Virus record (IMG/VR): IMGVR_UViG_3300029305_006219
Source of the DNA: a virus
Strand: one strand, 5' to 3'
Length of the DNA stretch: 64,000 nt
How positions within the stretch are numbered: position 1 is the stretch's first letter; each line of letters opens with the position of its first letter. The notes below the pieces were generated by a model. That model searched no databases and was not told the DNA's origin. It was given only the letters and a program-made list of their open reading frames with translations. Shown in pieces: positions 20,227-63,856 of the stretch. A program made the translations under genes and the position numbers.

Positions 20227-21399
20227 ATGGATACATTACAAACTTTAGACGACCTTTTGTCTGATGAGGATTTAGATATTGAAGACTCTTCTGAACAAGA
20301 GGAAGAAAATATAGAAGAGAAAATTATCACTGAAGATATTGCGCAAACTATAAAATTAGATTATAAGTTAGCTACCTGCGAAGAGCGCTCGGCGTTGGTT
20401 AATAAGATTATAGCCCAAACCCCTGCCGCCTCTTTAACAAATCGTTATTTAGAAATTTTAGGCGATTATATTATGGGAGGTATCACAAAAGAAGAACGTA
20501 AATCGCACCTATACCTTACTGACAATAGAATGATTACTGTTGCAAGGCGCGAAACGTCTTTTGAAGGTTTGGCAGAAAAATTTGAAAATGGAGAAGATGG
20601 TATTTATAATTTAATGACAAATGATAAAAATATTATCTTTGCACCAAAAAATACAATCACTGAAGAAGATATAGAAAATGTTCCTGGTCTTAAGCAATTG
20701 CGCGAGGCTATTATTCAAATTGAAGAGGAGGGGAAACGTGCTATAGGAAAGCGCAAATACCTTCTCAAAAAGCAACTCATAGAAATGCGTAAAGACCAAT
20801 ATATCTTAAAGAATTCATATTAGGCCCCCATGGTTTGCACTCCTTGTGCAAAAGGAGCAAATAAAATTGATTTAAGTGAAAAAAAATATGTAGATGAAAA
20901 TGGAGATCCACAAAGCACAGGTTTAATTTCTTTTTTTAAACCAGAGCATATTCAAGCAATTTTAAATAATTATAATGCTTTAAAAATAGAGACTAAAGGT
21001 AAATATTCTAGTGACTTTTTTTATTTGATGGAAGATTTTGATAAATTATTACATAAGGCATTAGATAATTATCCTATGTATTTTGATATTGTAAAAATGA
21101 AAGTAAATGGAAAAACAAATATTGAAATTCAAAAAATGTTAAAAGAAAAACATAATACAAGTTTTACTGTGTAGTACATTTCCAGTCTATGGTGTAAAAA
21201 AATTCCTAAAATTATAGCTGAGAAAGAACAGCATGACTTCTTAATCTGGTATTATCGTAATGAACAAAAAGGCCCATGGAAGCGTTGCTCTTGTTGTAAA
21301 GAATTTAAACCAGCTAATTCGCGCTTTTTCTCTAAGAATCGCACAAGTAAAGATGGATTTTATAGCATTTGCAAAATGTGCCGCAATAAGAAAAAATAA
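20227..21399 (+). CDS. hypothetical protein (about 390 aa, 2 in-frame TAG) with an acidic N-terminus and a C-terminal CxxC..CxxC motif
   Basis: Track ORFs 20227..20823 and 20830..21174 plus a further segment share frame 1. They are separated only by TAG codons and end on TAA at 21397-21399. Confidence 0.5.
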
Positions 21400-21480
21400 G
21401 GACAAAAATAATTATATATATACGCTTAATTTTATAAATCAATAAAGGCAAGCAAAATATAATTAAGAAAGGAGATTCTA

Positions 21481-22692
21481 ATGGCTAAATATCATTGTAA
21501 TAAATGCAATAAAGAATTAGAAGAAATTAATTTTTATAAGTATAGAGATGGTAGTTATGTAGAACTTTGTAAAAAATGTTTGACAATGCATGTTGATGTT
21601 TTTGATCCTAGCACTTTTACATGGCTATTAGAAAAATTAGACGTTCCTTATATCCCTCAAGAGTGGAACGCAGTAATTGAAAATAAAATGGCGAAAAAGC
21701 CAGATAAGCCTATTTCACATTCTGCTGTATTTGGATCTTATTTATCGAAGACTAAATTAAAACAGTGGAAGGATTATTATTGGGCAGATAATGAGCGTAT
21801 TCAAGAATTATATTATCAACAAAGCGCGCAGGCTTCTGCGGAAAAGGCTGAACTTGATGCGATGTATCAGGAGTAGTTTGAAGCGGGTCAGATTTCAGAA
21901 GCATAGTATAAAACTCTTACCTCCCCAAAGGCGCGCAATGATTCTATGATGGCGGCGCTTAGCGCAGGTGGCCCTTATTTAGGAGAAAATAACTCTTTTA
22001 ATGAGAATGATTTTATTGATGACTCTGCATTACCCGATTTATCTGCGCAAATGACACAAGAAGAAAAGATTACCTATGCAATGAAATGGGGTAAGTTATA
22101 TAAGCCTAGTGAATGGATAGAGCTTGAAACAGATTATCAAAAGATGAAAAAATCATTTGATATTCAAGATGCAGACTCTGAAAATACATTAATTCTTTTA
22201 TGTAAAACAAATTTAAAAGCTAACCAAGCTATTGACTGTGGCGATATCGAAGGCTTTTAGAAATTATCAAAAGTATCTGAATCATTGCGTAAATCAGCTA
22301 AGTTTACAGCAGCGCAAAATAAAGAACAAAAAGATGATTATGTAGATTCTATTGGATAGCTTATCGCTATTTGCGAAAAAGATGGTTTTATTCCAAGGTT
22401 TGCGACAGATATACCTCAAGATAAAGTTGATATGACTTTACGAGATATGAATGAATATGTGCGTAAGCTAGTTACCCAAGATTTAGGCTTTGGACAACAA
22501 ATTGAAGACTCTTTAAAGAAAATTATGATTCAAAATGAAATGAATCGTGAGGCGGAAGCGCGCCAGGCAGAAGAGGGTGATGACTTTGACCCTTATGCGC
22601 CAACGGAACTCGAGGATGAAGATATTGTTGCGCATTATGACAATTTACTAGAGATGAGACAAAAAGATCGAGATTTACTCGAGAAAGAGTGA
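21481..22692 (+). CDS. hypothetical protein (about 403 aa, 4 in-frame TAG) with an N-terminal zinc ribbon; candidate small terminase subunit by position
   Basis: Track ORFs 21481, 21946 and 22432 are all in frame 1 and joined through TAG only. The N-terminus carries CNKCNK...CKKC. The gene lies immediately upstream of the large terminase. Confidence 0.45.
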
Positions 22693-22696
22693 AGCT

Positions 22697-24445
22697 ATGG
22701 CAGTTCAAGATCTAATTAATCTCGCCCTTTGTGGAGACCAGAAAAAAATAGGGTTGTCAAAAGAACGCATTATGAAATAGATACCAATAGTGCGGTAGTA
22801 TGTTGCCTATTGGCGCGAATATCCTGATATGTTTGTAGAATTCTTATGCGGTCCAGAGAACAAAGAAAATTTTTAGTTATTTTTTTATTAGCGTTTATTT
22901 TTACGCGCAGTTATGCGTCATAGATATGCCTATGCAACGTTTCCTCGTGCGTATTCAAAAAGTTTTCTCTCAGTACTTGTATTAATGCTAAGATGTATAC
23001 TATATCCTGGTAGCCATTTATTCGTTACCACAGGGGGTAAAGAGCAAGCGGCAGGTATTGCTAAAGAAAAATCAGACGAGCTTTGCAAATTAATACCTGG
23101 ATTAAAGAATGAGCTCGATATGACAAGAGGTAAGACTAAAACAAGTAAAGATAATATTGAATTAATATTTAAAAATGGTTCAAAATTAGATATTATGGCG
23201 GCGCGCCAGTCGTCTCGTGGTAAACGTGCTACCGGTGGTCTAATGGAAGAGTGTATTCTTATAGACTAGACCTTGCTGAACGAAGTTATTATTCCTACAA
23301 TGAACGTAGATCGAAGATTATCAGACGGTTCCCGCGTAGAGGAGGAAACTGTTAACAAGAGTCAGATTTATGTGACGACCGCAGGATGGAAGAATAGCTT
23401 TGCTTATGAAAAACTTATAGAGTTGCTAATTCGTCAAATTATTTATCCTGATGAAGCAGTTGTTATGGGTGGAACCTGGCGTATTCCAGTTATGGAAAAA
23501 TTACTAAAAAAGAGCTTTATTGAAGAACTAAAATTAGACGGAACTTACAATGATGCTTCCTTTAGTCGAGAATATGAATCAGAATGGAGTGGAGATGCTG
23601 AAAATGCCTTCTTCTCTGCTGAAAAATTTGATAAGCATCGTCAATTATTACAACCAGAATACGAGTATTCCGGACGTACGTCAAAGAGTGGATATTACGT
23701 ACTTGGCGTCGATGTGGGTCGTCTTAAGTGTACAACTGAAGTTTGTATTTTCAAAGTCACTCCTTAGGCGCAAGGCGCAGCTTTAAAATCTTTAGTCAAT
23801 CTCTATTCCTATGAAGCCGAGGACTTTGAAGCACAAGCTATTAAAATTAAAAAGTTATTTTATAAATACAAGGCTCGTATGATCGCAATTGACGCCAATG
23901 GACTTGGAGTTGGTTTAATAGACTTCATGACCAAAGGACAAGAGGATCCAGAAACAGGTGAATATTTGCCGCCTTTTGGAGTTGATGGAGGCACATCTGA
24001 TGAGTTTAATGAGCAGTATAAGAAAGTTAAAGGCGCCGGAGTGGAAGAAAATGCAATGTATTTAATTAAAGCTAATGCGCCTATTAATACAGAAGCTCAT
24101 ACTTACGTACAAACTCAATTGGTTGGAGGTAAAATTAAACTTTTAATTGATGAAACTTAGGCTAAAACAAAATTAATGGCAACAAAGATGGGACAAGAAA
24201 TGGATGCGTCCAAGCGCGCCGATTATTTAATGCCATTTACACAAACTACAATTTTGCGTGAGTAGCTTTTGAATCTTGTAGAAGATAACGAAGGTACAAA
24301 TATTATTCTTAAGCAATCATCTCGCGGGATTCCAAAAGATAAGTTTTCTGCTTTTGAATATGGATTATATTATATTAAGCAAGAAGAAGACCGTAGTCGA
24401 AAACGTAAAAAGAGAAATATATCAGAGATGATGTTCTTCTCTTGA
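22697..24445 (+). CDS. terL: terminase large subunit (about 582 aa) with at least 8 in-frame TAG codons
   Basis: Frame-2 ORFs 22913, 23273 and 23879 and their flanking segments are contiguous through TAG. The N-terminal ATPase-like block is ..ATFPRAYSKSF..VTTGGKEQA... The gene ends with TGA at 24443-24445 followed by TAA. The position before the portal gene supports the call. Confidence 0.6.
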
Positions 24446-24518
24446 TAAAAATTAGGACAATTTTAAATAAATTATAACTTATAATTTTTATATAACAATA
24501 GTAAAGGAGTGAAGAGAT

Positions 24519-24875
24519 ATGAAAGCAAGTCGAGGCGAAATTAAAATTTGTGATATTTTAACCGAGGCTGGCGTCTCTTTTACAGAAGAGTATTCATTTT
24601 CCGATCTTGTTGGTTATACTAAAACCCCTTTAAGATTTGATTTTGCAGTATTAGACGATGATGGAGAGGTTGATTTTTTAATTGAATATTAGGGTATTCA
24701 ACATTATGAACCTAAGTCTAAATTTGGCGGAGTGGCTGGATTGCGCCAATAGCAATACTACGATATGTTAAAAAGGGAGTATTGTAAAAAACATAATATT
24801 CCCTTGGTTTTAATTCCTTATTATGATGAAGGAAGAATAAACTACGATTATATCTTTAAGGCCGCTGGCTATTGA
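24519..24875 (+). CDS. DUF559/Vsr-like PD-(D/E)xK endonuclease (about 118 aa, 2 in-frame TAG), likely a homing endonuclease between terL and the portal gene
   Basis: Motif RFDFAVLDDDGEVDFLIEY(Q)GIQHY matches the DUF559 pattern. An upstream motif-B promoter and the RBS aaaggag are present. TGA stop. Confidence 0.5.
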
Positions 24876-24917
24876 CAAGATTGAAAATTTTGAATATAAT
24901 ATTTAGAGAAAGAAGAG

Positions 24918-26522: not shown

Positions 26523-26539
26523 GGAGAGGAGAAACGGAA

Positions 26540-27901
26540 ATGCACAAATCAGTTGCTACGATAAACTCTCCTGAGTTTATCAATTTAAAACCACTTGATA
26601 TTAATCCTTTAATGTCTGCATGTGAAATTAAAGTTTTGTATGTTGGCGAAAATCGTAATAGGTCATATATAACCAAGGATGTTGCAACCGAAATGGCTAA
26701 GACATTACGAGGTGCGCCTATTGTAGGTTATTATAAAGAAGACATTGGAGACTTTAGAGACCACGGACAAGAAGTTATTATTGATAACGATGGGATTAAA
26801 TTTAATTGCAAAACTGTTCCTTATGGTTTTGTAGCTCCAGATGCAAAGGTATGGTTTAAAGAATTTGAAGATACTAATGACTTTGGAGAAACTATTTTGA
26901 GAGAATATCTTATGACTACAGGATATTTGTGGACTGGCCAATTTGAGGAATGTAAATCTGCTGTTGAGGGCGATGGCAAGCCGCACTCGATGGAATTAGA
27001 TGAAGCAACCGTTAAAGGACATTGGGAAACAAATACCAAAGGCATGGATTTCTTTATTATAAATGACGCAATTTTTTCAAAACTTTGCATTTTGGGCGAC
27101 GATGTTGAACCTTGTTTTGAAGGCTCAAGCATAAAAGCACCAAATGTTAGTGCGTCTTTTACGAAAGTAGATGATACTTTCAGACAAACATTATTTACTA
27201 TGATGCAGGATTTAAAGACTGCATTAGGAGGAGGTCAGCAAATGATAGACGCTATCGTCGATAATGCTGTAGTTGAAGAGCCTATTGTAGCGCCTGCGGC
27301 AGAACCTGCTGCGGAACCTATTATCGAGCCTGAAACTCCAGTAGAACCTTCTTTTGCTGCATCACAAGAGCCAGCTGTTGATACACCTGCAGTGGTTGAA
27401 GAGCCTGCGGCAGAACCTGTCGTAAATCCTGAAGACCCTGCTCCTGTAGATCCTGAACCGGCGCCCGCGCCTTCAATAGAAGAGCAGTTTACTGCACTTC
27501 AGCAGGAACTTGAGGAAGAAAGAACTGCACACTCTGCGCTTGCAGAACAGTATGCGCTACTTCAATCTCAGTATAATACCCTTTCAGCTGAGCACCTAGA
27601 ACTTGTTGAATTTAAAAGACAAAGTGACGATGCAAAGAAAGACGAAATGATTGGAAAATTCTATATGCTTAGCGATGAAGATAAGGCAGAGGTCTTATTT
27701 AATAAAGCTAATTACACTGTAGAAGAAATTGAAGAAAAACTTTCTGTAATTTGTTTCAGAAAAAAGGTCAATTTTGAATTAGAGGATAACTCTAAAAATA
27801 ATAATAAAGTAGAGCAACCACCTGTGACATTTAATATGTCCAACCCTGGTGCTTCAATGCCTGCTTGGTTACAAGCAGTTGAAAATGCAAAAAATAAATA
27901 A
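26540..27901 (+). CDS. scaffolding protein with a P/A/E-rich linker and a coiled coil (453 aa), possibly fused to a prohead protease domain; no in-frame TAG
   Basis: Intact track ORF. The central repeat region is AAEPAAEPIIEPETP..., followed by a C-terminal coiled coil. The position supports the call. Confidence 0.45.
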   Translation: MHKSVATINSPEFINLKPLDINPLMSACEIKVLYVGENRNRSYITKDVATEMAKTLRGAPIVGYYKEDIGDFRDHGQEVIIDNDGIKFNCKTVPYGFVAPDAKVWFKEFEDTNDFGETILREYLMTTGYLWTGQFEECKSAVEGDGKPHSMELDEATVKGHWETNTKGMDFFIINDAIFSKLCILGDDVEPCFEGSSIKAPNVSASFTKVDDTFRQTLFTMMQDLKTALGGGQQMIDAIVDNAVVEEPIVAPAAEPAAEPIIEPETPVEPSFAASQEPAVDTPAVVEEPAAEPVVNPEDPAPVDPEPAPAPSIEEQFTALQQELEEERTAHSALAEQYALLQSQYNTLSAEHLELVEFKRQSDDAKKDEMIGKFYMLSDEDKAEVLFNKANYTVEEIEEKLSVICFRKKVNFELEDNSKNNNKVEQPPVTFNMSNPGASMPAWLQAVENAKNK

Positions 27902-28464: not shown

Positions 28465-29517
28465 ATGGCATTAGATAGAAATAGTTTATTTACATTAGGT
28501 CACCGCGTTGCTGACGCTAATCCTTCTGCTCCCGTTGCTTATTCTTTTGAGGATAAGAGTTATAGCTATGCAGATTTAAATAATGCTTTCCGTGCAGAGC
28601 TTAAGGATCTTATTGGTACATATGCTCTTTGGAGAGAGAACCATAATACAGTTTATACTCTTATGGAGGAAATTATCACTGATAAGCTTCCTGCTAAAGT
28701 AATGCAACAATATGGCGCATTTGCTGAAGTTAAGACATATCGTCAAGGCGAAAAGCCTGTATTCGTTCAGAGAATTACCGAGGCTTCCAAGAGACGTGCA
28801 AAGCAGTTTATTGCAATGCCTGCAGGTCTTGCTGGTCGTTATGAGGTCTTTAAGCTTGATGGACGTAGCTACGAAGTAAAGACTTCTGCAATGGGTGCAG
28901 CATGTCAGATCGCTATTGAGGAATTCCTTGATGGTAGAATTGATATGGCTACAGTTCTTGATATTGTTATGGAAGGTATGGATGATAAGATCTATGCTGA
29001 AATCGCAAATGTTCTTATCGCTGCTGTTGAGAATATTCAAGATGCTAACAAGGTTCTTGCTGATAGCTTCGTTGAGGCTGAAATGGACGCTCTTCTTGCA
29101 GTTGCGGACACTTATGGAAACGGTAGATCGACGATTTATTGTACATTTGAGTTTGCTTCTCAAATGCTTCCTGACAATGCTTGGGATCAAGGAAGAATGT
29201 CTGATAGTATGAAGGATGAGTACTGGAGAAATGGTCGTCTTGCAAACTACAAGAACCATCAAGTCATCGTTCTTCGTCAATCTTTTGTTGATGAAACAAA
29301 TACTGAAAAGGTTATCGATCCTTCATATGCTTGGATTATTCCTGGCGGCGCTGAGAAGCCAATCAAGATCGCTTTCGAAGGTGATACAATGATTAAAGAA
29401 GAAGATAATGAAGACTGGTCTAAGAGCATCCACTTCTATAAGAAGGTTGGCGTTGCGGCTATGATCAACAATGATATCTGTGTTTATAAGAACAGATCTC
29501 TTAAGAAAACCAGATAA
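28465..29517 (+). CDS. major capsid protein (350 aa, no in-frame TAG)
   Basis: Strong RBS aagggaggg. Size and position downstream of the scaffold gene fit a major capsid protein. A stem-loop follows at 29535-29569. Confidence 0.55.
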   Translation: MALDRNSLFTLGHRVADANPSAPVAYSFEDKSYSYADLNNAFRAELKDLIGTYALWRENHNTVYTLMEEIITDKLPAKVMQQYGAFAEVKTYRQGEKPVFVQRITEASKRRAKQFIAMPAGLAGRYEVFKLDGRSYEVKTSAMGAACQIAIEEFLDGRIDMATVLDIVMEGMDDKIYAEIANVLIAAVENIQDANKVLADSFVEAEMDALLAVADTYGNGRSTIYCTFEFASQMLPDNAWDQGRMSDSMKDEYWRNGRLANYKNHQVIVLRQSFVDETNTEKVIDPSYAWIIPGGAEKPIKIAFEGDTMIKEEDNEDWSKSIHFYKKVGVAAMINNDICVYKNRSLKKTR

Positions 29518-29603
29518 TTAAACTTGAACTTTCAGAGGGAAGAGAAGAAGGTGGGTCTTCCTTCCCTCTTAAATTCTAAATGGAGATAAAAGGAGATATA
29601 ATT

Positions 29604-30182
29604 ATGTTAAATAATACTGATAAAATCAGAGTAGAAAATCGCGCAAATGCGATTGTTTGTTACAGAGTACCAGAATCTAAGGTTATTAGACGTTTTGAGC
29701 CAAAAGAAACAAAAGAAATTCCTATGGGCGAATTGCGTCAAGCAGTACAAATCCCAGGTACTTATAATCTAATAGCTAGTGATTTGATTCTGCATAGTAA
29801 AGAAGCTGTTGAAGAACTAATTCCAGATGCAGAACCTGAGTATTTTTATGATAAAAATGATGTTCTTTTTCTTCTTGAAAAAGGCACTTTAGATCAACTT
29901 AAAGATGCATTAGATTTTGCGCCTGAGGGTGTTATTGATCTAATTAAAGAAGAGGCTGTTCTTACAGAACTTAACGACATGAAGAAAAGAACTGCAATTT
30001 TTGAAGCTACTAATTTTAATGTAACTAAAGCAATTGAGCTTAGACATGAAGCGCAAAAGGAAACTAAAGTTGAAACTAAGACCAGACGTGCGGCGCCAAT
30101 CGGTGAAGCAGAGACTGAAGAAACAACTCAAGCGCCTGTGCGCAGAACGGCTATGCCCAATAAATACACTATTGTAAAGTAA
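29604..30182 (+). CDS. hypothetical head-completion or connector-region protein (192 aa)
   Basis: RBS aaaggagatataattATG inside track ORF 29580..30182. Confidence 0.45.
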   Translation: MLNNTDKIRVENRANAIVCYRVPESKVIRRFEPKETKEIPMGELRQAVQIPGTYNLIASDLILHSKEAVEELIPDAEPEYFYDKNDVLFLLEKGTLDQLKDALDFAPEGVIDLIKEEAVLTELNDMKKRTAIFEATNFNVTKAIELRHEAQKETKVETKTRRAAPIGEAETEETTQAPVRRTAMPNKYTIVK

Positions 30183-30200
30183 TATTAAGGAGGTGTTCGT

Positions 30201-30677
30201 ATGCCAGTAACATCAACACCTTTTTCCGTAGTGCATGATAGATTTTTATCGAAAATAACTGACGATATGTATATGGAAATTACTCCAGAAGAAACCGCCG
30301 CAGCATTGAATGAGCTTCTTGATAGCGCAATACCGTGGTTTGAATTTCCTAGGGTTAATTTAAACGATAAAACAAATGAAGTATTTAATGCTTCATTAAG
30401 TGATGAAGAAATTAATATTCTTGCTATATATATGATAGTCGAATGGATTGGATATCAATTGGCTAATATTGAATTGATTCGTATGAAGTATAGTGGAAGT
30501 GATTTTAAATTTACTTCTCAAGCTAATCATATGCACAAGCTTAAAGATATGCAAAAGGAATATGAAAGAAAAGGATTCCATTTGCAAAGACTTTATAAAC
30601 GGAGAAAAGCAGATAGTAAAGGTATTATGAAATCTACTTTTGGAAGTATTATGGAATCTTCTTTTAAGGAGGACTAA
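30201..30677 (+). CDS. hypothetical structural protein (158 aa)
   Basis: RBS taaggagg. ORF from the track. Confidence 0.45.
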   Translation: MPVTSTPFSVVHDRFLSKITDDMYMEITPEETAAALNELLDSAIPWFEFPRVNLNDKTNEVFNASLSDEEINILAIYMIVEWIGYQLANIELIRMKYSGSDFKFTSQANHMHKLKDMQKEYERKGFHLQRLYKRRKADSKGIMKSTFGSIMESSFKED

Positions 30678-33362: not shown

Positions 33363-34286
33363 ATGCAATTTGGTATTAGAGAAATATGCGACGTCGTATT
33401 TAAGGCTAAAAATGCTGGAAACCTTGGTTCCTTTAAGTATGTTGCAGGACAGCCTGTTCTTTATATTGACAGCGCAAAAACTTCCACAATGGAAGGCGCA
33501 GCTACCACTGTTTATGCTCAGGGTGGTAAGGGTAATGCGCGTTTGATCGCTTGGGAAGGTGAGAGAACTCTTACTTTCACGGTTGAAGACGCACTTCTTT
33601 CTGAGCTTGGATTTGCTATTCTTTCTGGCGCTGGTCTTTTAAAGGCTGGTGAAAAAGTTGGAGAGAATACTCATGTTGCTCATGTTCATTCTACTTCTAG
33701 AACTGTTATTGGTACAGATGGAAAAATCGATCTTAGTGATGTTCTCGGTGAGAATGAAACTATCGATGAAGCTTCTCCTGTTTTTGTTATGCTAATGGAG
33801 CATGGTTCGCTTAAGAATATTCTTACTGGTTGCACTATTGCAGAAGATGGTAAATCAATTACTGGACCCATCCAAATGGACGGTGAGACGGCGGTTGAAG
33901 CAGATGTCTTTGTTGACTTCTATATTCAAAAGACAGCTGGTGTTACAGAAATGACTATTGATATGGAGAACTTTGCAGGTTATTATTATGTTGAAGCATC
34001 TACTCTCTTTAGACGTCAATCTGACGGTAGAGACTTACCTGCTGAGCTTATTTTCCCGAACGTTAAAATTCAATCTAACTTCACATTCTCAATGGCTTCT
34101 ACTGGTGATCCTTCTACATTTACATTCACAATGGATGCAATGCCTGGATACACTCGTTTTGATCGTTCTAAGAAAGTTCTTTGCGCAATGCAAGTTGTTG
34201 ACGAAGATACTAGCGATGACAAGGATCCTGATAAAGATTCTGCTGATTTGATAGCAGATGCAGAAAAACTTTATCCTATTGCTTAA
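33363..34286 (+). CDS. abundant tail protein (307 aa, no in-frame TAG); candidate tail tube protein
   Basis: Strong RBS taaggagg. Intact ORF followed by a strong terminator. The position upstream of the chaperone/tape-measure genes supports the call. Confidence 0.45.
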   Translation: MQFGIREICDVVFKAKNAGNLGSFKYVAGQPVLYIDSAKTSTMEGAATTVYAQGGKGNARLIAWEGERTLTFTVEDALLSELGFAILSGAGLLKAGEKVGENTHVAHVHSTSRTVIGTDGKIDLSDVLGENETIDEASPVFVMLMEHGSLKNILTGCTIAEDGKSITGPIQMDGETAVEADVFVDFYIQKTAGVTEMTIDMENFAGYYYVEASTLFRRQSDGRDLPAELIFPNVKIQSNFTFSMASTGDPSTFTFTMDAMPGYTRFDRSKKVLCAMQVVDEDTSDDKDPDKDSADLIADAEKLYPIA

Positions 34287-34363: not shown

Positions 34364-36124
34364 ATGAGTAAGCTTGGAGATTATATTCATGTTAGCTGGA
34401 AAAATTATCGATTATATGGTACTACTAAACAAGGCCCTAGTAATTTTGATCCTATGATTTTTGCTCATCATAGAACAGAGGTTGCGCGCGAAATTTTAAA
34501 AACTAAAGAAATAAATAATATTGCAAAATTAGAATAGCAATACAATAGTGGAGCAAAAAAGTTAAATTCATTTATATCTAATGTTATTGCACATAAAAAT
34601 GATAATAAAGATTTTTTAACTTAGCTTTTAAGTATTATTAGTAAAAATTATAAATCTATTTCAGATTATATTATAAAAGGATTAAAATGGGATCCTCATA
34701 GAGAATGCATTATTTATGATCCTGAAATTACTACTGAAGCATTAAAAGCGGATGAAGTAAATGCGCAAAAAACAATGCAAAATTTTCAACGACAATCTGG
34801 TATACATATCGACCCATTGGTAACGCATCTATAGTCAATAAAAAGTAAATTATCAAAATTAAATGAAAGTTCTTTAAAAATTGGATTATTAGCTACTTGT
34901 CAAAGTTACATTTTATCTTTGCAACAAGCGAAAGGTGAAGATAGTTTATTAGCAGATTCAATTAGGGTAATTACTCGTGGTAAGGTACAAGGCGGTTTTT
35001 TATCAATAGCAGAAGAAACAAAATAGGGGAAAAAAGGTTTTTTAAATGGATTTTTAGCTGATATTTAGAAGCTAACTGCATAGTCATTGAGCGCAATTAG
35101 AATTTAGAATAATATTGGAGCAGAATTAGCAGAAATTATGGGTACTGTTATTAGTGAAAATCTTAATAATCTTTCTAGAACTGCGCTGGAAGAATATTTT
35201 AAGTCATTCGTTAATTCTAATAAAACTACTATGGGGCGCGCAATGACGAAAGCTTGGACAAAAAAAGTAAATGGAAATATGACGGGCGCAGGTATTGGAT
35301 CTATTGAATTAAATTTAGATAATATTGATTTAGGAACTTTATTTGATGATAAAAACTCTCATAGAAAAGCTATTCAAAAATATGAGTCTAAAAAAACGGG
35401 AGAAATTAGTTACTCAATTGAATCTTTTTCTGATACAGTTTAGCAAAAAGCGGATTTCATTGTTACTTTAAAAGATAATACACAATTTGGAGTGTCTATG
35501 AAAAATTATGATATGTCTGATATTTCAGCTATTGAAACAAAAGTTGGAACAAAAATTCCTAATAGCATTGCTTTACAGGATTCTAGTTTAGCTTTATATC
35601 TAGGAGCATTAGAATTGAAACACAAACCTGGAAACTTAGGCAATCATTATTTATAGATTTTAAGCCAATAGAGAGGATATGAGAATGGAAAATATGCGGC
35701 TGAAATATAGCGAATGCGTACGTAGGCTAATCAAGCTTTATCTTTATATATTTTATGGAGCGCAATGACTGGGCGCGGTCAGGGTAGAGGTTTTAGTAAT
35801 TAGTTTGCTGATATTTTAGCTATTTATGATAAAGCAGATAAATTTGCTGCTATAACTGGTTTTAGAAGAATTCGTTTATATAGCATGAGAGATATTTTAA
35901 AAGATATTATGACTATGACTCAGGATTCTTTTAATTAGGTGGCAATATTTACACCTCGTATTTCTCAAATTCTATTAGATAATAAAAGGGTAGGTGATAA
36001 ACCTGATTTTGCATTGGCAAAAGAGCGTATTTCTAAATTAGTTATTCATGCAAAATCATAGAATATAGCGGTTTCTTTATCTAAAATATATCTTAATACT
36101 ATTGCAGGTATTTCTTATAAATAA
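34364..36124 (+). CDS. hypothetical tail-region protein (about 586 aa, about 17 in-frame TAG)
   Basis: RBS aaaggagg plus ATG at 34364. Frame 2 is open to the TAA at 36122-36124 and contains track ORF 35138..35443. Confidence 0.45.
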
Positions 36125-51765: not shown

Positions 51766-52098
51766 ATGGTTATTCAACAAAATTGTAATTTTATTGAAAA
51801 TGCCAGTGCTCCTATTGTATCAAAAACATTTTCTAATGCGGCAAGCGACACCTTAACGCTGCAAATAAGTGGCGCTAATGGTAAGTATTATCTTGAAGGA
51901 CGCAATAATTCTATGGGTGACTGGTTTGCGCTCGCAGGTATTAGCTTAAGTGACTTCTCTGCCCACCGAGGAGTGTTTACAAAAGCTGGTATCTATGAGA
52001 TTGGCGTAGTCGGTATTCGTGAAGTACGCGTACGAATAGAATCAGTAGAAGGAAATGTTTCTATTTTTGGACAAATGATAAGCACGGAGGAGACGTAA
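51766..52098 (+). CDS. hypothetical structural protein (about 110 aa)
   Basis: RBS ataggagg plus ATG at 51766, inside track ORF 51760..52098. Confidence 0.45.
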   Translation: MVIQQNCNFIENASAPIVSKTFSNAASDTLTLQISGANGKYYLEGRNNSMGDWFALAGISLSDFSAHRGVFTKAGIYEIGVVGIREVRVRIESVEGNVSIFGQMISTEET

Positions 52099-53005: not shown

Positions 53006-53872
53006 ATGGCAAGAGAAAAAGGTACATTTCTAGTCTCAGCTAATTATGAGCCGCAAAAAGCTGCCCCATTCGATGCGCGGGCTTTGGTTGAAACTAAAGC
53101 AGATTTATTTGCGGCAAATACATGGGCTATAAATAACGAATTGTGGATTTATAAAGGTATGATAGTTGCAGTTGCAACTGACATTGAGCCTAAAAACAAT
53201 GGTATTTATATGCTCTTAGACGATGTAAATTATTTTAATGAAGATGCTTGGCTTAAAATGTCTGACTCAACCATGGACGGCGAGTCTGCTGGTGAGGTTC
53301 TAGGTCAATTAAATTCTTATAAAGAGACTAACGATGCGGTAGTTGCTGCTATCAATGGTAAGATTGGAACTCCTGGTGAGGGACAAAATGATGAAGGCGA
53401 TACGCTTTATAGCTTAATTGCAGAAGCGCAAACTCAGGCTAATAAAGGTGTTGCCGATGCGAAGACAGCGAATGACGCAATTGCAGCGTTAACCAATGGC
53501 GCAATTGCTACTAATACATCTGACATTAGCGCAATTAAAGGTAGACTTACTACTCTTGAGACAGAAGTTCTTCCTATTATCAATAAGCATAGTGATATTC
53601 TTGCAGGCATTGGCGGCGATGGTGAAAAAGCAACAGTTAAGGCATATGTTGATGATGCTATTGCAGCAATTCCTACTTATGAACTTCCTGCAGCTACTGC
53701 TGAAACTCTTGGTGGAGTTAAGTCTGCGGCTGATGTTGACGGGAAAGCAGTTACAAATGCAGTTTATGTTGATGCAACTAGCAATGTTGGTAGTGTAAAA
53801 ACTATAAGCACAGATATATTAGTCCAAGGGGTCGAAGAGCTTATTCTTAATGGCGGTAGCGCCAAGGCTTAA
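53006..53872 (+). CDS. fibre-like structural protein (288 aa, no TAG)
   Basis: Intact ORF with an Ala/Thr-rich repetitive C-terminus. A GC hairpin at 53903-53926 carries the same 23-mer as 17775-17797, in inverted orientation. Confidence 0.45.
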   Translation: MAREKGTFLVSANYEPQKAAPFDARALVETKADLFAANTWAINNELWIYKGMIVAVATDIEPKNNGIYMLLDDVNYFNEDAWLKMSDSTMDGESAGEVLGQLNSYKETNDAVVAAINGKIGTPGEGQNDEGDTLYSLIAEAQTQANKGVADAKTANDAIAALTNGAIATNTSDISAIKGRLTTLETEVLPIINKHSDILAGIGGDGEKATVKAYVDDAIAAIPTYELPAATAETLGGVKSAADVDGKAVTNAVYVDATSNVGSVKTISTDILVQGVEELILNGGSAKA

Positions 53873-53966
53873 TTATAAGCCACTTAATATATAAAATATA
53901 AGACGCCTTAGGGTGACCTTTGGCGCCGATTAAATAAATTCATAATTTAAAGGAGATTTTAAAATT

Positions 53967-55481
53967 ATGGCGAAACAAATTAATACTCGTATCATGCTTA
54001 AGCATGATAGCTTAACTAATTGGAATGAATCCTCTATAGTTCTTAAGCCAGGTGAAGTTGGTATAGCATATGTAGATGTTACAACCACTGATGCCAAGGG
54101 CAATATTATTCATGTTCCTACTGCTCTTTTAAAAGTAGGTGAAAATGTAGAGAATTCTACCAAAACTTTTAAAGAGCTTCCCTTTATGTCTGCTATTGCA
54201 GCTGATGTTTATGCATGGGCAAAGAAGAGCGGAATTGAAGTAGTAGACGAAGGAGAGGGAGAGGTTCTTTCTGATGTAACTTGGGAGAATGACAAACTCG
54301 TTCTTCATAGATTAGATGTTGTAACTCCAGCAGAACTTACAACGGCTCTTGGAAGTTACTATACAAAAGATGAAATTGATGGCAAGATTGAGGAAATCAG
54401 TCAGTCTATTTCGGACCTTGACGTATCTGCTCTTGAAGGTAGAGTTGATGCAGTAGAGACTGCTGTCGAAACAACACTCCCTGGTCAAATCAGCGCAGTA
54501 GATGCAAAATTTGCAAGCTATACAACAACAGCTGCGCAACAAGCAATTGATGCGGAACAGGATCGTAGACTTGGCGTTATCGAGGGTGATTATGTAAAAT
54601 CTGCTGATATTGCCAACTTTGAAACAAAAGAGAATGTTCAGAAGGTTGCAAACGATCTTGCAGGATATCAAACTTCTAATGACGCAGCTCTTGCAGCAGT
54701 AAAAGCAACAGCTGATGCGGCTGCAGTTAAGACTGAGGTTGAGACAGCTCTTGCTGATAGATATACTAAAACCGAGGCAGATGCTGCTTTTGATGCAAAA
54801 GGCAGTGCTGATCAAGCATTAACCGATGCTAAGGACTATACTGATACCCAAATTCAAGCTATCATGGGTGGAGAAGTCGATGAAGCTTATAACTCTTTCT
54901 TAGAGATTCAGAATTTCTTAAAGGCTGATGAAACTGCTACTGCTCAGCTTGTTGAAAAGGTAAATGCGAATGAGGCGGCCGCAGCTGCAGCTCAGGCAAA
55001 GGCTGATGCTGCACTTCCTACAGCTACCGCGGAGGCAGATTACTTAAAGAAAACAGATGCATCTACCATTTACGAGCCTATTGGTGCACAAGCTGCTGCA
55101 GAGGCTACTGCTAAAGGTTATACCGATACAGAGATTGCAAAGCTTAGCAATGTTTATGATGCTAAGGGTGCTGCTGCTGATGCACAGGCGGCTGCTATCG
55201 CAGATGCTGCGGGCAAGTATGAGACAAAAGGTACTGCTCAAGGTATTGTTGACGCTTTAAACCTTGCTCAAACTTATGAGCCTATTGGCGCAGAAGGTAG
55301 AGCTATTGCTGCGGCAAAGACTGAAACTGAGAACCAGATTGCAGCTCTTGGTATTGAAGATTATGCAAAGAGCGCAGATGTGGCTACTACATATCGCGCA
55401 AAGGCAGATAAGATTACTTCTGATGATCTCTCTGACGAAGTTTTCATCTTTAATTGCGGAACAGCATCTACTGTTATATAA
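53967..55481 (+). CDS. coiled-coil, alanine-rich tail fibre protein (504 aa, no TAG)
   Basis: Strong RBS taaaggag. Long Ala/Glu/Thr-rich repeats are typical of fibre shafts. A strong terminator follows. Confidence 0.5.
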   Translation: MAKQINTRIMLKHDSLTNWNESSIVLKPGEVGIAYVDVTTTDAKGNIIHVPTALLKVGENVENSTKTFKELPFMSAIAADVYAWAKKSGIEVVDEGEGEVLSDVTWENDKLVLHRLDVVTPAELTTALGSYYTKDEIDGKIEEISQSISDLDVSALEGRVDAVETAVETTLPGQISAVDAKFASYTTTAAQQAIDAEQDRRLGVIEGDYVKSADIANFETKENVQKVANDLAGYQTSNDAALAAVKATADAAAVKTEVETALADRYTKTEADAAFDAKGSADQALTDAKDYTDTQIQAIMGGEVDEAYNSFLEIQNFLKADETATAQLVEKVNANEAAAAAAQAKADAALPTATAEADYLKKTDASTIYEPIGAQAAAEATAKGYTDTEIAKLSNVYDAKGAAADAQAAAIADAAGKYETKGTAQGIVDALNLAQTYEPIGAEGRAIAAAKTETENQIAALGIEDYAKSADVATTYRAKADKITSDDLSDEVFIFNCGTASTVI

Positions 55482-55609: not shown

Positions 55610-56116
55610 ATGGCTGAATTAATTGGAACATTTGGTGCTGGTACTGTAATTATTATTTTATTAATTGCGATTCCAGCCATTGTTAATTTTATCTCTTGGT
55701 GTAAAAAAATATGGTCTACAAGAGAGAAGTTTAAAGAAGAAAATATCCAAAAAGGTAAAAAGATAGAAGCGGAAACTGAGCAAAAAGAGGCGCGTCTCGT
55801 GAAGCATGAAGACAGAATTAAGTTATTAGAAGATAACTTAATTGAAATGAAAAAAATTAATGAAGCGCAAAGTAAAGAGTTAACTCGTTTGCGTAAATCT
55901 GATAGATTAGCAATCAAAACATGGATAAAAGAATAGCATGAAAAGTGGATTAGATTAGGATGTATTGATAACTACACTTTAGATTTACTTGAAGAAAGAT
56001 ATGCTATTTATAAAGAAGAAGGCGGCAACAGTTGGGCTAAGAAGCTTATGGACGAGCTTCGCGCCCTTCCCACAGTAACCGTAGTTGCTATATCAGATAT
56101 TCATGAATAGGAATAA
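55610..56116 (+). CDS. membrane-anchored coiled-coil protein (about 168 aa, 2 in-frame TAG); possible holin or lysis-associated protein
   Basis: An N-terminal TM helix GAGTVIIILLIAIPAIVNFISW is followed by a coiled coil. Track ORF 55610..55936 continues through the TAG to the TAA at 56114-56116. Confidence 0.35.
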
Positions 56117-57502: not shown

Positions 57503-57504
57503 TT

Positions 57505-59715
57505 ATGGCAAAATATAGCTACTTATCTAATCCTTAGATATTAAGATATGTTGATAATTTAATAGTAAAAGAACAATATGTTAAAATTATTTTATTCAAC
57601 ATGAATGACGAACCTCTTGAATCTATTGAAGGGTTTGCCACTACCGGTAGTATTTCAGTAAATGGTTAGTCTTCAATGCGTAGAACTGGCTCTTTAACAA
57701 TGTTAACTTATACGGATAAAGATATTTGTAAAAATCCTAATTTTATAATGAATAAAGTAACTGATATTAATAATAAATTATCAATGAATAAAAAGATTGA
57801 AATTGAAGTTGGTATTAAAAATACTGGCGCATAGTATTTAGAATATTCTATCTTTTGGTTCCCTGTTGGAGTTTATGGAATTACAGATGCTTCTGTGAGT
57901 TCAAATAATTCGGGTATTCAAATATCTTTAAAATTTAATGATAAAATGGCATTTTTGAATGGCTCTTTAGGAGGTACTTTTTCAGTTAAGACAACGCATT
58001 CTCCTATTTATGTAGAGGGCGGTGATCCTGAGCCTGTTTTAAATCGTAAATTAATTGAATCTCTGGTACATGATGCAGGTGGTATTCCTAAAGAAAAAAT
58101 TATTATTGAAGATGTTCCCTTTTAGATTAAAAATGCAATTCGATGGACATCAAATTATCCAGCTTATTTAAAGCATATAGATGGTAACAAATATGAGTTA
58201 ACATTAGGATAGGCGCCAAATGATGGAGCTATTGATGAATATATTTTTGGAGATGCTATTGGATATCAAATGACTAATTTTACTTATGGCGCAGGTGATA
58301 GTCAAGCAGAGTTAACTTCTAATGCAGGTGAAACTATTGAATCTGTCTTAAACAAGATAAAAAATACTATGGGTAATTATGAGTTTTTCTTTGATTTAGA
58401 TGGGAACTTTAGATTTAGAGAAATTAAAAATTATCTTAATGAAGGTAGTGCTATTAACAATCTTGTAGATGCTATTAATGATAAATATTTTATTAATTAG
58501 TCGCGAGGTAAATCAATCTACTCTTTTGATAATACTAATTGTACTGTTTCCTATTCTAATAATCCACGTTATAGTGAAATTAAAAATGATATTATTGTAT
58601 GGGGGTAGACTGCTAAAAATAAAACCCCAATTTGTTATCATTTAATTATTGACACACCGCCTTAGTCTGGTAACGAATACTGGGTTGTGTTTTAGATGGA
58701 TGCAGATGGTACATAGAGAGCTAAAGCAGTATGGGATGTGTAGCCTGAGAATGATAAACTTAGTGCAAAAAAAGTAAGGACTTAGGACTGGCGCCAAGAA
58801 CTCTATATGTAGTATATTAGAGATGGAGTTCAAACTCCTTTGGCTAAAGAGTTAATTTAGAATTTGCCTTTGATTTATAATGTTCAATATGGAATAGAAG
58901 CCGATAATATTAAGCCTGGTGATAACGGCTTCTTTTATGATAATTAGCCTGATGCAACACCTTATTTTATAGATATGATAGACCCTAATCTTTTTGGCGG
59001 AGATAATATTATACCAATTTTAGCCAAAAAAACAGCAACGGTAATTATACCTGCCACATAGAGCGGAACGGAAAAAATTCCATATGAAGGGATGGATAGT
59101 ATACTTAAATTACATTCTATTGAAGGCGAAGAAACAGCTTGCATTACTTCTATTGAACATGATGCTAATTATATTATTATAAAATATAACAACACAACCG
59201 ATACATTACTTTCTATAATTATTAATTATTCTGTTGTTACTGGTTATTAGACTATACAATCAAATACAATAGGTGTTACAGGTTTAGAATCAATAAAATA
59301 GTTTGGAGTTTAGACTATAGGCCGCCGACAAAAAGTTATTAATGATTCAAAAGTAAACTGTGTCTTTGCGCCAGTGCTAAAAGATATTTTATATGTTGAA
59401 AAAGCAGAAGATGCATCTGCTAATCAAAAGTATATTATTGCAGATACTTCGATTCAATCAGCTATTGGAATAGGCGTAGCAACTAATTCAGCATATGATT
59501 TAGTACGCAGTGCATTACATTAGTACACTAGTTACAATAATAGTATTAGTTTATCTTGTATGCCTATTTATCATTTAGAGCCAAATACTCGTATTACAGT
59601 AAATGATGATGATAGTGATATTCATGGAGACTATATTATAAATAGTTTAACAGTTCCACTTACAGCGAATGGAACAATGAGTATAAGCGCAAGTCGTGCG
59701 ATTGAAAGAATATAA
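57505..59715 (+). CDS. hypothetical large structural protein (about 736 aa, many in-frame TAG)
   Basis: Frame 1 contains track ORFs 57895 and 58270 and is joined through TAG. TAA at 59713-59715. Two tandem terminators follow at 59723-59751 and 59802-59829. Confidence 0.45.
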
Positions 59716-59930
59716 TAAAAATAAAGGAACTCATTTTGAGTTCCTTTTTTATTGAAAGAAATAATTTAATACGATTTTAATTGATTACTGTTAAAATGAT
59801 TTCCTCATCATATGGATGAGGATTTTTTTATTCTCCTGTTAAATTTCAAAATTTATATCAAAATTTATTAAAGCGATTAAGTAAATTTTAATATAAATTT
59901 GAACAAGAGTGAAAGGAGAAATAAACTCGA

Positions 59931-60416: not shown

Positions 60417-60427
60417 GGAGGTAAAAT

Positions 60428-60676
60428 ATGGCTTACAATGTAGACCCCGCATATTTATTAATGCAAATGCGTTAGGGCAAAAATCCAGAACAATTAATGA
60501 TTGATATTCTTGAAGGAGAAGCGTCACAAAATCCTATTATGGGTAATCTCTTGTCAATGGCAAAAGATAATCGTACAGCAGATATTGAAAAATTCGCACG
60601 TAATCTTGCCAAAGAACAAGGAATTGATTTTGATAAAGAGTTCAGTAGGTTCAAAAAGCAGTATTTTGGACTCTGA
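60428..60676 (+). CDS. small protein (about 82 aa, 1 in-frame TAG)
   Basis: RBS ggaggt plus ATG at 60428. TGA at 60674-60676. Confidence 0.4.
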
Positions 60677-60709
60677 ATCTAAATATATTTTTATAAAGGA
60701 GGACATAAT

Positions 60710-61159
60710 ATGTTCAACACTTCAAATGGATATTCTTTATCCGACATCGCCGCAGTAACAGGCGGCAACAGAGGAAATGGAGGTTTCGGTGACGGCTTTG
60801 GTGAGAACGGTTGGTGGATCATCTTATTGTTTCTTTTCACTGGATGGGGAAGAAATGGTTGGGGCAACAACGGAGGCTCTGAAGGAGGCGCAGGTTACAT
60901 TTTAAATCCTTACTTCTATGGAGCTAACTTTGGTGGATCAGCTTGTGCAACTAAAGATGATGTTCGCGCTGCAGTCGATCAGCAAACTTTAATTTCTAAA
61001 CTTGATAACCAAACTTATGGTTTAGCTGATAGCACATACGCATTAAGTAATGCTATCACAACAGGATTCCACGGAGTAGATAACGCTATCTGTACTCTTG
61101 GATATCAAAACCAAGCTGGATTTACAGCCCTTGGTAACCAGATCGCAGAATGCTGCTAA
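60710..61159 (+). CDS. glycine-rich membrane protein (149 aa) with a YjcZ-like Gly/Trp-flanked hydrophobic core
   Basis: Strong RBS aaaggagg. Core GGNRGNGGFGDGFGENGWWIILLFLFTGWGRNGWGNNGG. No TAG. Confidence 0.5.
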   Translation: MFNTSNGYSLSDIAAVTGGNRGNGGFGDGFGENGWWIILLFLFTGWGRNGWGNNGGSEGGAGYILNPYFYGANFGGSACATKDDVRAAVDQQTLISKLDNQTYGLADSTYALSNAITTGFHGVDNAICTLGYQNQAGFTALGNQIAECC

Positions 61160-61335
61160 AGTCATTGGCAGCCTAATAGGTAACTATTAGAAAACAATTC
61201 GGAGAATTGCTGGAAGGCTAATTTCACAAAATAAAAAATTAAGGACAAAAATTATTCATCCATTAAACTCAATTTTAAATATATATTGAACAATGAAGTT
61301 CATAATTCAATATAGAATAATAAAGGAGATTAAAA

Positions 61336-62136
61336 ATGGAAGAAAATAAGTTTTATGTATATGAATGGTATAATGTTGATACCAATTATGTCTTTTATGT
61401 AGGCAAAGGCTGCGGGAAACGATATCGAGAGATGGCGCGCAGAAATCAATTATTCAAATAGTATTGTATGGATTATAATGTAGATTCAAGAATTGTTAAA
61501 GATCAGCTCACAGAAGAACAAGCTTTTAAATATGAAGCAGAGTTAACTTATTACTACAAAGAAAAAGGTGAATGTCATTGTAGTTTAGCTAAACCTGGAA
61601 CTGGAGGCTACTCTTTTGTATGGACAGAGGATATGAAACAATATTGGTCTAAATATAACCCAATGAAAGCTCAAGAATAGAGAGAAAGAATGTCTAAGAA
61701 TAATCCTATGAAAAATCCAGAATTTGCAAAAAAAGCTGGAGATAAACATAAGCGACCTATTATAATAAACAAAACCCGATATGATGGTCTAGTTGATGCA
61801 GCAAGAGCATATGGAGTAGCAGAGACAACTGTCGTAGGATGGTGTAAAAAAGGAGGCAATCCTCAAGGAGAATTATGTTATTATGAGGATGAAGGACCCA
61901 AACCATTCACTCCTAGTTTAAGTACAAAAGTTCCTATTATTGTAAATGGAATATGGTATGAGAGCAAAGGAGCCGCAGCGAAAGCTATTGGTGCGCCAAA
62001 TGGTTCTTGTTTCAATAGCGCGTTAAAAAATGGGATTTTATATAAAGGACAATATAAATGTGAATATGCTAATCAGCAGCCGAGCCAAGGGAATTCCAAT
62101 AACAGTACCTTGGAAGGTTCAACGACTAACGAGTGA
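61336..62136 (+). CDS. GIY-YIG homing endonuclease with NUMOD-like C-terminal repeats (about 266 aa, 2 in-frame TAG)
   Basis: RBS aaaggag plus ATG at 61336. GIY-YIG motif FYVYEWYNVDTNYVFYVGKGCGKRYREMARRN. Track ORFs 61468 and 61690 are in the same frame. The C-terminus repeats NPMK... Confidence 0.55.
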
Positions 62137-62366
62137 GGATGGATACCAATAATCTCGACACGAGTACCGAACTCCTATTTAGATAGGATGAAGATATAGT
62201 CTGATCTTATAGGAAACTATAAGAAATACAAGATAAAGAGCTTGTATGATAACATAATGGTGACACTCGCGCCGCAATTGCTGATGTAAAAACTCAAGGC
62301 GTTATAAATACTAACGCTCTTGCTTCACAATTAGCTGCTTGCTGCTGCGACATTGAGAAGGCTAAC

Positions 62367-62687
62367 ATGGAAAATCGTTTTGCCGCTCAAACTTATAACT
62401 GCAATACGCTTCAAGCTATTGACAAACTTGGTGATAGAATCATCGATTTCATGACGCAAGATAAGATCGCTTCTCTTACTGCAGAGAATCAGTCTCTTAA
62501 ATTCGCGGCATCACAAGCAAATCAAAATGCATTTATCACTGCAAATCAAGAAGCTCAGACTGCAGAACTTATTCGCAGACTTTCGACTCCATGTCCCGTT
62601 CCTGCGTATGTAGTTCCTAACCCCAACTGCTGCTACGATTATCAAGTAACTCGTAACTGCGGTTGCGGTAATTGCGTAAGCTTCTAA
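62367..62687 (+). CDS. small protein with a Cys-rich C-terminus (106 aa)
   Basis: ORF from the track. The C-terminus is CPVPAYVVPNPNCCYDYQVTRNCGCGNCVSF. Confidence 0.45.
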   Translation: MENRFAAQTYNCNTLQAIDKLGDRIIDFMTQDKIASLTAENQSLKFAASQANQNAFITANQEAQTAELIRRLSTPCPVPAYVVPNPNCCYDYQVTRNCGCGNCVSF

Positions 62688-62715
62688 TTAATTTTAAACG
62701 GAGGCTTAGATAAGA

Positions 62716-63135
62716 ATGGAAATTACAGCAAATGCTCTGCAGACGGTAGAGCTTAATCAAAATGTTCAGTTTACCGACACTGCGGTTTGCGGCAGCTGCT
62801 CCATTATGCATCGTGATGGTAGTGGTTTAGTAACTCTTCGTGGTCTTACTAACCAATGTCGTGCGAGATTTAAGGCGTTCTTCAGCGGGAATATAGCCAT
62901 TCCCGCTGACGGAACTGTTGAAGCGATCTCTCTTGCGATTGCTATTAACGGAGAGGCTGTGGCTACAACCACAATGATCCAAACTCCAGCGGCAGTAGAA
63001 GAATTCGCTAATGTAGCTAGCGCAGTATATATTGACGTTCCTGCTAATTGCTGCATCACAGTTAGCGTAAGAAATACTAGTACGCAAGCTATTGATGTTC
63101 AAAATGCAAACTTAATTATAGAAAGGGTGGCGTAA
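62716..63135 (+). CDS. BclA-C-terminal / C1q-TNF-like jelly-roll domain protein (139 aa)
   Basis: The pattern ..LAIAINGEAVA....SAVYIDVPANCCITVSVRNTSTQAIDVQNANLIIERV resembles the exosporium BclA C-terminal domain and phage receptor-binding C1q-like domains. RBS acggagg. Confidence 0.4.
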   Translation: MEITANALQTVELNQNVQFTDTAVCGSCSIMHRDGSGLVTLRGLTNQCRARFKAFFSGNIAIPADGTVEAISLAIAINGEAVATTTMIQTPAAVEEFANVASAVYIDVPANCCITVSVRNTSTQAIDVQNANLIIERVA

Positions 63136-63136
63136 T

Positions 63137-63856
63137 ATGGAAAAATTAAAATAGATGAAAGAGGCGCTCGTCGGTTGTGTTCAAGGCCAGGTCTATGGCA
63201 ACATGGAGAAGGTCGACGCTCAAGAGCTTGGCGCCGCCATTGATATGATTAAGGATCTTAGTGAAGCTATCTATTATTGTACAATTACTGAGGCTATGGA
63301 GGAAGAAGGCGAAGATAAAGAAGGTAAAGGCAAGCACGGAATGATGTATTATTCTCGTACAACTCCTATGTATCATATGCCTTATCCTGTTGAGATGTAT
63401 GACCCTCGCAATAGAGAAAGATATTATTCACCAATGTATGCGCAAAGTGGCGAAAATAGTGGTGGCTATTCTAGCTCGTCTAATGGCAATAGTTCGAACT
63501 CCTCAGGTGGTAATGATGCGCGCGGAGGCGGCACTCGTGGCTACCATGAGGGAATGATTCCAGGTGAACATTATCCAATGTATAACGATGGTATGTATTC
63601 AATGTACGAACGCGGCGGTAATCGAGGATATATGGAAGCTATGAGTCGTGACCCTAAAGAAGGAAGAAGCGGCGAACGCCGCAAGATGTATATGGACGGT
63701 AAAGGTATGAAAGATAAAGCTCATCAAATGAAAGAGCTTGAATCTTATATGCAAGAACTTTCCAGTGATCTCACAGAGATGATTCAAGACGCATCTCCTG
63801 AAGAAAAACAACTTCTACAACAAAAGATAAGCATGCTCGCTACTAAAATTAAATAA
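63137..63856 (+). CDS. Tyr/Met/Gly-rich low-complexity protein (about 239 aa, 1 in-frame TAG near the N-terminus)
   Basis: RBS gggtgg plus ATG at 63137, in frame with track ORF 63155..63856. Repeats MYxxMY, GYSSSSNGNSS and GGNRGYMEAM are present. Confidence 0.45.

Follow-up and report, generated by a model that had tools for sequence, protein, structure and literature searches.

Recoded gut phages have been described in which structural and lysis genes are recoded, early genes remain in the standard code and suppressor tRNAs are encoded (Borges et al., bioRxiv 10.1101/2021.08.26.457843), and code-15 recoding has been validated by proteomics (Peters et al., PMC9523058). The 'Agate' clade of Firmicutes phages, of ~127–154 kb, contains close relatives that use codes 11, 4 or 15; the Agate lineage analysed by Borges et al. 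is ~127 kb and TGA-recoded, and recoding in the clade favours a group I intron endonuclease (bioRxiv 10.1101/2021.08.26.457843). Phage phAss-1 has a genome of 135,976 bp, a tape measure protein of 3,149 amino acids (aa) and TAG translated as glutamine (Gln) in 41 open reading frames (ORFs) (Babkin et al. 2023, PMC10607447). It belongs to a wider monophyletic group of which only part of the members are recoded, and members of the proposed Phassvirus share 80–86% nucleotide identity (PMC10607447). In the NCBI database phAss-1 (OQ749652) is filed under 'Caudoviricetes code 15 clade', with three tRNA-Sup-CTA genes annotated. The current study concerns a 64,000-nucleotide stretch of IMG/VR virus record IMGVR_UViG_3300029305_006219 (the window), and in particular the amber (TAG) codons in the late module on its plus strand, from 20227 to 63856.

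The window has a G+C content of 35% and is part of the ~135-kb genome of a tailed phage (JGI contig Ga0318466_10002543, 135,189 bp). An initial annotation, made without database searches, proposed that TAG is a sense codon throughout the late module. The explanation favoured here, with a probability of roughly 0.92, is that this ~135-kb tailed phage, probably infecting Bacillota, uses code 15, with UAG translated as glutamine and with UAA and UGA as its sole terminators.

TAG as a sense codon in the late module

The late module consists of 34 tightly packed ORFs, equivalent to 33 genes after allowing for one intron. Their 13,891 codons include 205 in-frame TAGs (1.5% of codons) and not one in-frame TAA or TGA. 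Termination is on TAA in 24 of these ORFs and on TGA in the other 10; none ends on TAG. The proposal that the long late genes are split by TAG alone, and end cleanly on TAA or TGA, is therefore borne out. The same is true of the examples originally named, namely the tape measure, terL, portal and tail fibre genes and the two genes upstream of terL, for which the TAG counts are given in Table 1; the frame numbers assigned to them equal the start coordinate modulo 3.

Open frames of this kind are, as had been argued, beyond chance. The off-frame rates per codon are 0.047 for TAA, 0.036 for TGA and 0.082 for both together, and at these rates the probability that the tape measure frame alone would be free of TAA and TGA is ~10^-117. 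When stops were restricted to TAA and TGA, plus-strand ORFs of at least 150 aa rose in total from 5,667 to 15,121 aa, and the longest grew from 511 to 3,150 aa. No comparable gain in ORF length was obtained in the window by freeing TGA or TAA in place of TAG, and the effect of TAG as sense on minus-strand ORF lengths was nearly nil. Late plus-strand genes, called under both codes with a simple greedy caller, numbered 33 with TAG as sense versus 81 short ORFs or fragments under code 11.

Two checks suggested in the initial annotation gave the same answer. Between 20.1 and 64 kb, coding density is 0.94 with TAG as sense versus 0.63 under code 11. In addition, homology in terL, the portal, the tape measure and the S74 fibre runs across the TAG positions. 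In TerL, one continuous alignment to the standard-code proteins of GenBank phages (tblastn) extends over all eight TAG positions, and full-length alignments across TAGs were obtained for the TerL, portal and tape measure proteins of Enterococcus phage H1, Geobacillus virus E3 and Alicyclobacillus phage KKP_3916. Most late proteins, TerL and portal included, have no Pfam match, and PHROGs gave more; the PHROG matches (TerL, portal, tape measure) and the Pfam matches (S74, GIY-YIG) all span TAGs. Of the two conserved motifs reported to contain TAG, SD(TAG)RIKNSI lies at 50981 within the Pfam Peptidase_S74 match of the fibre, as described. The other, VGQSE(TAG)LENR..H, is also present with its TAG inside a Pfam match, that of the GIY-YIG protein, but is located at 5891 and so falls outside the interval to which it had been assigned. 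Gene calls in ENA for strain contigs already translate through TAG. These observations indicate that TAG is a sense codon in the window and that TAA and TGA are the only terminators.

Identity of the amino acid

The phage was compared with 80 IMG/VR contigs whose TerL is 60–94% identical to its own, and residues were counted at the 38 TAG sites no more than 10 kb from terL, a total of 2,275 aligned cells. Gln occupies 1,011 of these cells (44.4%; CAA 846, CAG 165), which is 11.7-fold above its background of 3.8%, and is the plurality residue at 19 of the 38 sites. TAG itself is present in 4.9% of the cells. Two TerL columns are near-invariant, with 74 Gln and 6 TAG at position 65 and 75 Gln and 5 TAG at position 357. 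Position 275 of the portal similarly has 61 Gln and 3 TAG in relatives, and both TAGs of the HNH or homing-endonuclease-like ORF (24519–24875) align to near-invariant Gln. In the reverse comparison, the TAG codons of relatives are most often opposite a Gln of this phage. The closest standard-code relative, MT836163, has Gln at 16 of 33 aligned TAG sites (CAA 14, CAG 2) and glutamate (Glu) at 4.

Codon usage is in keeping with this. Across the late module TAG accounts for 32% of the Gln-equivalent codons, and in the tape measure for 45%; its share is highest among the late genes in the tail protein gene at 57505–59715, at 65%. Counting TAG as Gln brings the late proteins to 4.6% Gln, a normal level. 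Because of the 11.7-fold enrichment, the near-invariant Gln columns and this normal Gln content, TAG is taken to encode glutamine (code 15), the residue that had been thought probable from the outset.

Decoding of UAG and alternative readings

The closest IMG/VR relative (TerL 94% identical) and at least nine more carry a tRNA(CUA) gene between rnhA and the gene preceding gyrB. These tRNAs have an ordinary cloverleaf, an anticodon loop of CUCUAAA or CUCUAAC, a weak or mismatched 1–72 pair and G73, and their acceptor features are, as far as sequence can tell, tRNA-Gln-like. A suppressor beside nrdD was found neither in 20 of the 80 relatives (tRNA tool) nor by ARAGORN over all the loci retrieved. 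By analogy with the relatives, a phage-encoded Gln-tRNA(CUA) very probably lies in this genome too, outside the window and between rnhA and gyrB. In one TAG-recoded relative (L188, 3640–3715) a tRNA of the array has the anticodon UCA, a reader of TGA, and a CUA suppressor is also present.

In the proposed mechanism, a phage Gln-type tRNA(CUA) would be made from an early or middle transcription unit and would outcompete release factor 1 (RF1) of the host. Full-length products of the late genes that contain TAG would have to await this code switch. The genes gated in this way would be the first ORF of the rightward operon and those for packaging proteins, tail proteins and the intron homing endonuclease, while the most abundant virion proteins (capsid and tail tube, by gene position) would stay TAG-free. 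A weaker and improbable reading is that recoding might gate late transcription itself, as the first rightward ORF combines a match to a 'sigma factor' PHROG, a consensus host promoter and TAG codons.

The window itself contains only two tRNA-like genes, both aberrant (ARAGORN, Rfam; Table 1). The one at 13961–14032 is directly behind a perfect sigma-70 early promoter. Five independent assemblies carry it in identical form, which speaks against an assembly error and leaves no covariation to use. Its sole other match in a metagenome collection has a 5-nucleotide (nt) loop and is on a G+C-rich contig. This gene was considered as a suppressor and is unsupported in that role: it has A at the U33 position, U at the purine-37 position, a 6-nt loop and no clear isoacceptor affinity. 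It seems improbable that the two aberrant genes (13961–14032 and 10689–10760) are working parts of the code switch and not decayed tRNAs; their possible roles would be as a non-canonical amber decoder, or as a decoy for RF1 or a synthetase.

At least 12 tRNAs, Gln(UUG) among them, form an array in the 9.7 kb that adjoin the window on its left; further odd members occur in this array, such as one with the reported anticodon 'tgga'. A match to an HDV (hepatitis delta virus)-like ribozyme family (37 bits; gathering score 44) abuts the 3' end of the tRNA-Gln(UUG) (L008, 19943–20010). This recalls the 'theta ribozymes' that adjoin tRNAs in recoded gut phages (PMC10879173).

Several points weigh against a phage-directed switch to code 15. 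No canonical tRNA(CUA) was found in the ~74 kb of genome made up of the window and the adjoining 9.7 kb on the left, and a search for the GGQ motif found no release-factor gene, RF2 included. The proposed timing, early versus late, is deduced from gene order, strand and promoter-like sites. Glu predominates in the relatives at 5 of the 38 TAG sites, and lysine (Lys) at 4. In addition, a few TAGs next to gene ends are ambiguous, two of which serve as examples. A TAG in the minus-strand ORF at 15097–15354 either ends an 85-aa early ORF or, if sense, adds 26 residues; on the plus strand, the TAG near a gene end at 56108–56116, the penultimate codon of a 168-aa ORF, is undecidable as sense or stop. 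Not one early or late gene can be shown to terminate on TAG.

The lack of a canonical suppressor in the ~74 kb would be explained if UAG were decoded by the host, either because it is sense in the host or through a host-supplied suppressor, with no phage tRNA involved. Some recoded relatives of phAss-1 are likewise without a detectable tRNA-Sup (PMC10607447). However, complete avoidance of TAG in the early genes would be pointless if the host read UAG, and the conserved site at which the closest relatives have their tRNA(CUA) lies beyond the ~74 kb covered in this genome. Host decoding is accordingly regarded as unlikely.

Marginally less likely again is that TAG is sense but specifies another amino acid, such as Glu or Lys. 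Glu is the second commonest residue at the TAG sites of the 80 contigs (12.4% of cells), and Lys, at 7.5%, still leads at the four sites mentioned above. The enrichment is 1.4-fold for Glu and 0.9-fold for Lys, compared with 11.7-fold for Gln, and both the near-invariant columns (74 Gln and 6 TAG of 80) and the Gln-like acceptor of the relatives' tRNA(CUA) argue for glutamine. The Glu- and Lys-dominated sites would fit ordinary substitution, yet this is no proof of Gln at each site.

The reading of the TAGs as real stops, by way of pseudogene fragments, rare leaky readthrough or assembly errors, has nothing to recommend it beyond the standard-code reading itself. It is very improbable, given frames broken by TAG alone (~10^-117 by chance for one gene), identical proteins found again in 16–24 independent contigs and some TAG positions common to this phage and its relatives; leaky readthrough is excluded by the presence of 82 TAGs in one essential gene. 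Pyrrolysine, suggested by the default 'tRNA-Pyl' label that ARAGORN gives to the CUA tRNAs of relatives, would go with rare UAG in particular genes and with pylTSBCD; it is less probable still, as TAG is 1.5% of codons (205 of 13,891) and stands opposite Gln, those tRNAs are ordinary cloverleafs with Gln-like acceptor ends, and no pyl-like matches were seen among the proteins scanned, in a scan that was not exhaustive.

Extent and patchiness of recoding

The interval of 20.2–63.9 kb given for the recoding proved too narrow. That interval is recoded, but so are 3.6–7.8 kb on the plus strand, a lipase gene on the minus strand and nrdD, outside the window. The nrdD gene (anaerobic ribonucleotide reductase) was seen in a strain variant of the region to the right of the window (L017, 4866–7829), where it contains an intein and two in-frame TAGs; an early or middle gene is therefore also recoded.

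The leftward early genes differ from the late module in having no TAG either in frame or as terminator, and so read the same under both codes. Of these 23 genes, 15 end on TAA, 8 on TGA and none on TAG, and early minus-strand coding density is hardly altered by recoding (0.80 versus 0.81); only plus-strand blocks gain in density. Since none of the 34 late and none of the 23 early genes ends on TAG, this codon appears to be avoided as a terminator genome-wide.

Within the late module the recoding is patchy. The statement that every long gene is broken by TAG goes too far: 11 of the 34 late ORFs are TAG-free, among them ORFs of 504, 453 and 350 aa. These TAG-free ORFs are within 26540–27901, 28465–30677, 33363–34286, 51766–52098, 53006–55481, 60710–61159 and 62367–63135, and are richer in G+C (0.38–0.44 versus ~0.32). 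Two Ala-rich fibre-like proteins are among them, as are the proteins at the capsid and tail-tube positions. Such a pattern could stem from selection acting on highly expressed genes or from genes having been acquired recently.

Other features of the window

The sequence TTGACA-N17-TATAAT has 22 matches in the window when one mismatch is allowed, against 1.26 expected. Thirteen perfect copies of this sigma-70 consensus, with the extended -10 TG, are on the minus strand between 9741 and 17627, ahead of the leftward early genes. The early promoter copies belong to a repeated element of ~60 nt, which is found in relatives too. Perfect plus-strand copies are present at 20168–20196, before the first late ORF, and at 24872–24900, just before the portal gene.

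The coordinates of the principal features are collected in Table 1. The 'sigma factor' label of the first late ORF has no Pfam support, and the Geobacillus E3 homologue is annotated otherwise; this function is therefore putative and unverified. For the TAG-free protein at the major-capsid position, a PDB search gave no sequence match and AlphaFold, run on the single sequence, produced an unusable model (predicted local distance difference test score 36), so that its capsid identity is a positional guess. Within the 9.4-kb ORF, the 12 tape-measure family matches fall in residues 1–1,079.

A late gene near the right-hand end of the module is apparently split by a group I intron. The ORFs at 60710–61159 and 62367–62687 match the N- and C-terminal halves, respectively, of PHROG 16490. 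Relatives have orthologues that lack the intron and in which both exons are continuous, with only 2 nt unaccounted for. The two ORFs are thus read as two exons of one gene.

Table 1. Location of predicted genes, RNAs and sequence elements in the 64,000-nt window
Feature	Coordinates	Strand	In-frame TAG	Basis or remark
Second TAG-sense block	3636-7762	+		Coding density 0.84 (TAG sense) vs 0.56
GIY-YIG protein	5843-6238	+		Pfam GIY-YIG, 28.6 bits; match spans TAG
Early region, ~23 small genes	8200-19300	-	None	No TAG terminators
tRNA-like gene, 8-nt anticodon loop UUUCGUUU	10689-10760	-		ARAGORN, four-base anticodon tcgt
tRNA-like gene, 6-nt anticodon loop CACUAU (contains CUA), encoded CCA	13961-14032	-		Missed by ARAGORN
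Lipase_3-domain gene	19347-20006	-	2 (sense)	Homologues align across both TAGs
Promoter-like site, TTGACA-17-TATAAT, perfect	20168-20196	+		31 nt upstream of first late ORF
First late ORF, 390 aa	20227-21399	+	2	PHROG 5767 match, annotated 'sigma factor'
Terminase-region protein, 403 aa	21481-22692	+	4	PHROG 3314 match (function unknown family)
Large terminase (TerL), 582 aa	22697-24445	+	8	PHROG match and tblastn
HNH or homing-endonuclease-like protein, 118 aa	24519-24875	+	2	PHROG match
Portal protein, 517 aa	24969-26522	+	8	PHROG match
350-aa protein, major-capsid position	28465-29517	+	None	Gene order only
Virion structural protein, 307 aa, tail-tube position	33363-34286	+	None	PHROG 2729
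586-aa ORF	34364-36124	+	15	No family match
Tape measure protein, 3,142 aa	36829-46257	+	82	12 tape-measure families (PHROGs)
Tail fibre, 1,654 aa	46364-51328	+	32	Pfam Peptidase_S74, residues 1540-1595
168-aa late ORF	55610-56116	+		TAG as penultimate codon
Tail protein, 736 aa	57505-59715	+	20	
Exons of split late gene	60710-61157, ~62260-62687	+		Both match PHROG 16490
Group I intron, ~1.1 kb	61158-62261 (about)	+		Rfam core 45.8 bits; gathering score 50
Homing-endonuclease ORF in intron	61336-62136	+	2	

Relatives and their genetic codes

Megablast with 24.8 kb revealed no close relative among GenBank phages; IMG/VR holds many. By tblastn against GenBank phages, TerL identity is 67% to MT836163, a human-faecal scaffold, 46% to Geobacillus E3 and Alicyclobacillus KKP_3916, and 42% to Enterococcus phages H1 and VRE9_4 and to phAss-1. 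The standard-code relatives (Enterococcus phage H1, EF1, Geobacillus virus E3, Alicyclobacillus KKP_3916 and MT836163) share the order of the late genes between the terminase region and the tape measure; they differ from this phage in having no in-frame TAG, with Gln codons where it has TAG.

The 80 TerL relatives are in three coding states: some have in-frame TAG, many have in-frame TGA and others have neither. Of 424 in-frame TGA codons aligned from relatives, 320 stand opposite Trp in this phage. Even close relatives thus do not share one genetic code. A lineage that includes TGA-recoded and standard-code relatives may be useful for studying the speed of code change.

The practical consequence is for annotation. 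Calling under code 11 turns the 33 late genes into ~81 fragments and misses the 3,142-aa tape measure, so that table 15 is needed; the warning that standard-code calling would mis-annotate this region was well founded. The phage adds one more clear case to the 'code switch' model, according to which the host can read the early genes whereas amber codons keep the late genes locked. Earlier publications already cover the phenomenon, the amino acid involved, the late-gene bias and the phage group, and nothing here goes beyond the published model. The phage is a comparative case of use, and no surprise for the specialist.

Comparison with known recoded phages

phAss-1 resembles this phage in genome length (135,976 versus 135,189 bp) and in the length of its tape measure (3,149 versus 3,142 aa). 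In both, TAG stands for Gln in the genes for TerL, the portal, the tail fibre and the tape measure; both also have syntenic late genes and carry a large tRNA array on the opposite strand. They differ in the suppressor sites, which in phAss-1 are after nrdD and in the array, and in the close relatives of this phage after rnhA. No nucleotide match to phAss-1 was found by megablast with 24.8 kb. Together with a TerL identity of 42%, this places the phage outside Phassvirus and at least in a different genus from phAss-1.

The phage is also similar to the code-15 gut phages of Borges et al. TAG is concentrated in structural, tail and endonuclease genes and is opposite Gln, the early genes are dual-readable, tRNA(CUA) is present in relatives and the host phylum is expected to use the standard code. 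It differs from them in that the suppressor is seen in its relatives and not in the window.

With the Agate clade the comparison can be made by published description only. At gene level, the published work dealt with members recoded at TGA; the phage described here is TAG-recoded. The likeness to Agate lies in the genome size of ~135 kb, in the occurrence of relatives with TAG, TGA or standard code, and in a group I intron homing endonuclease that carries recoded stops.

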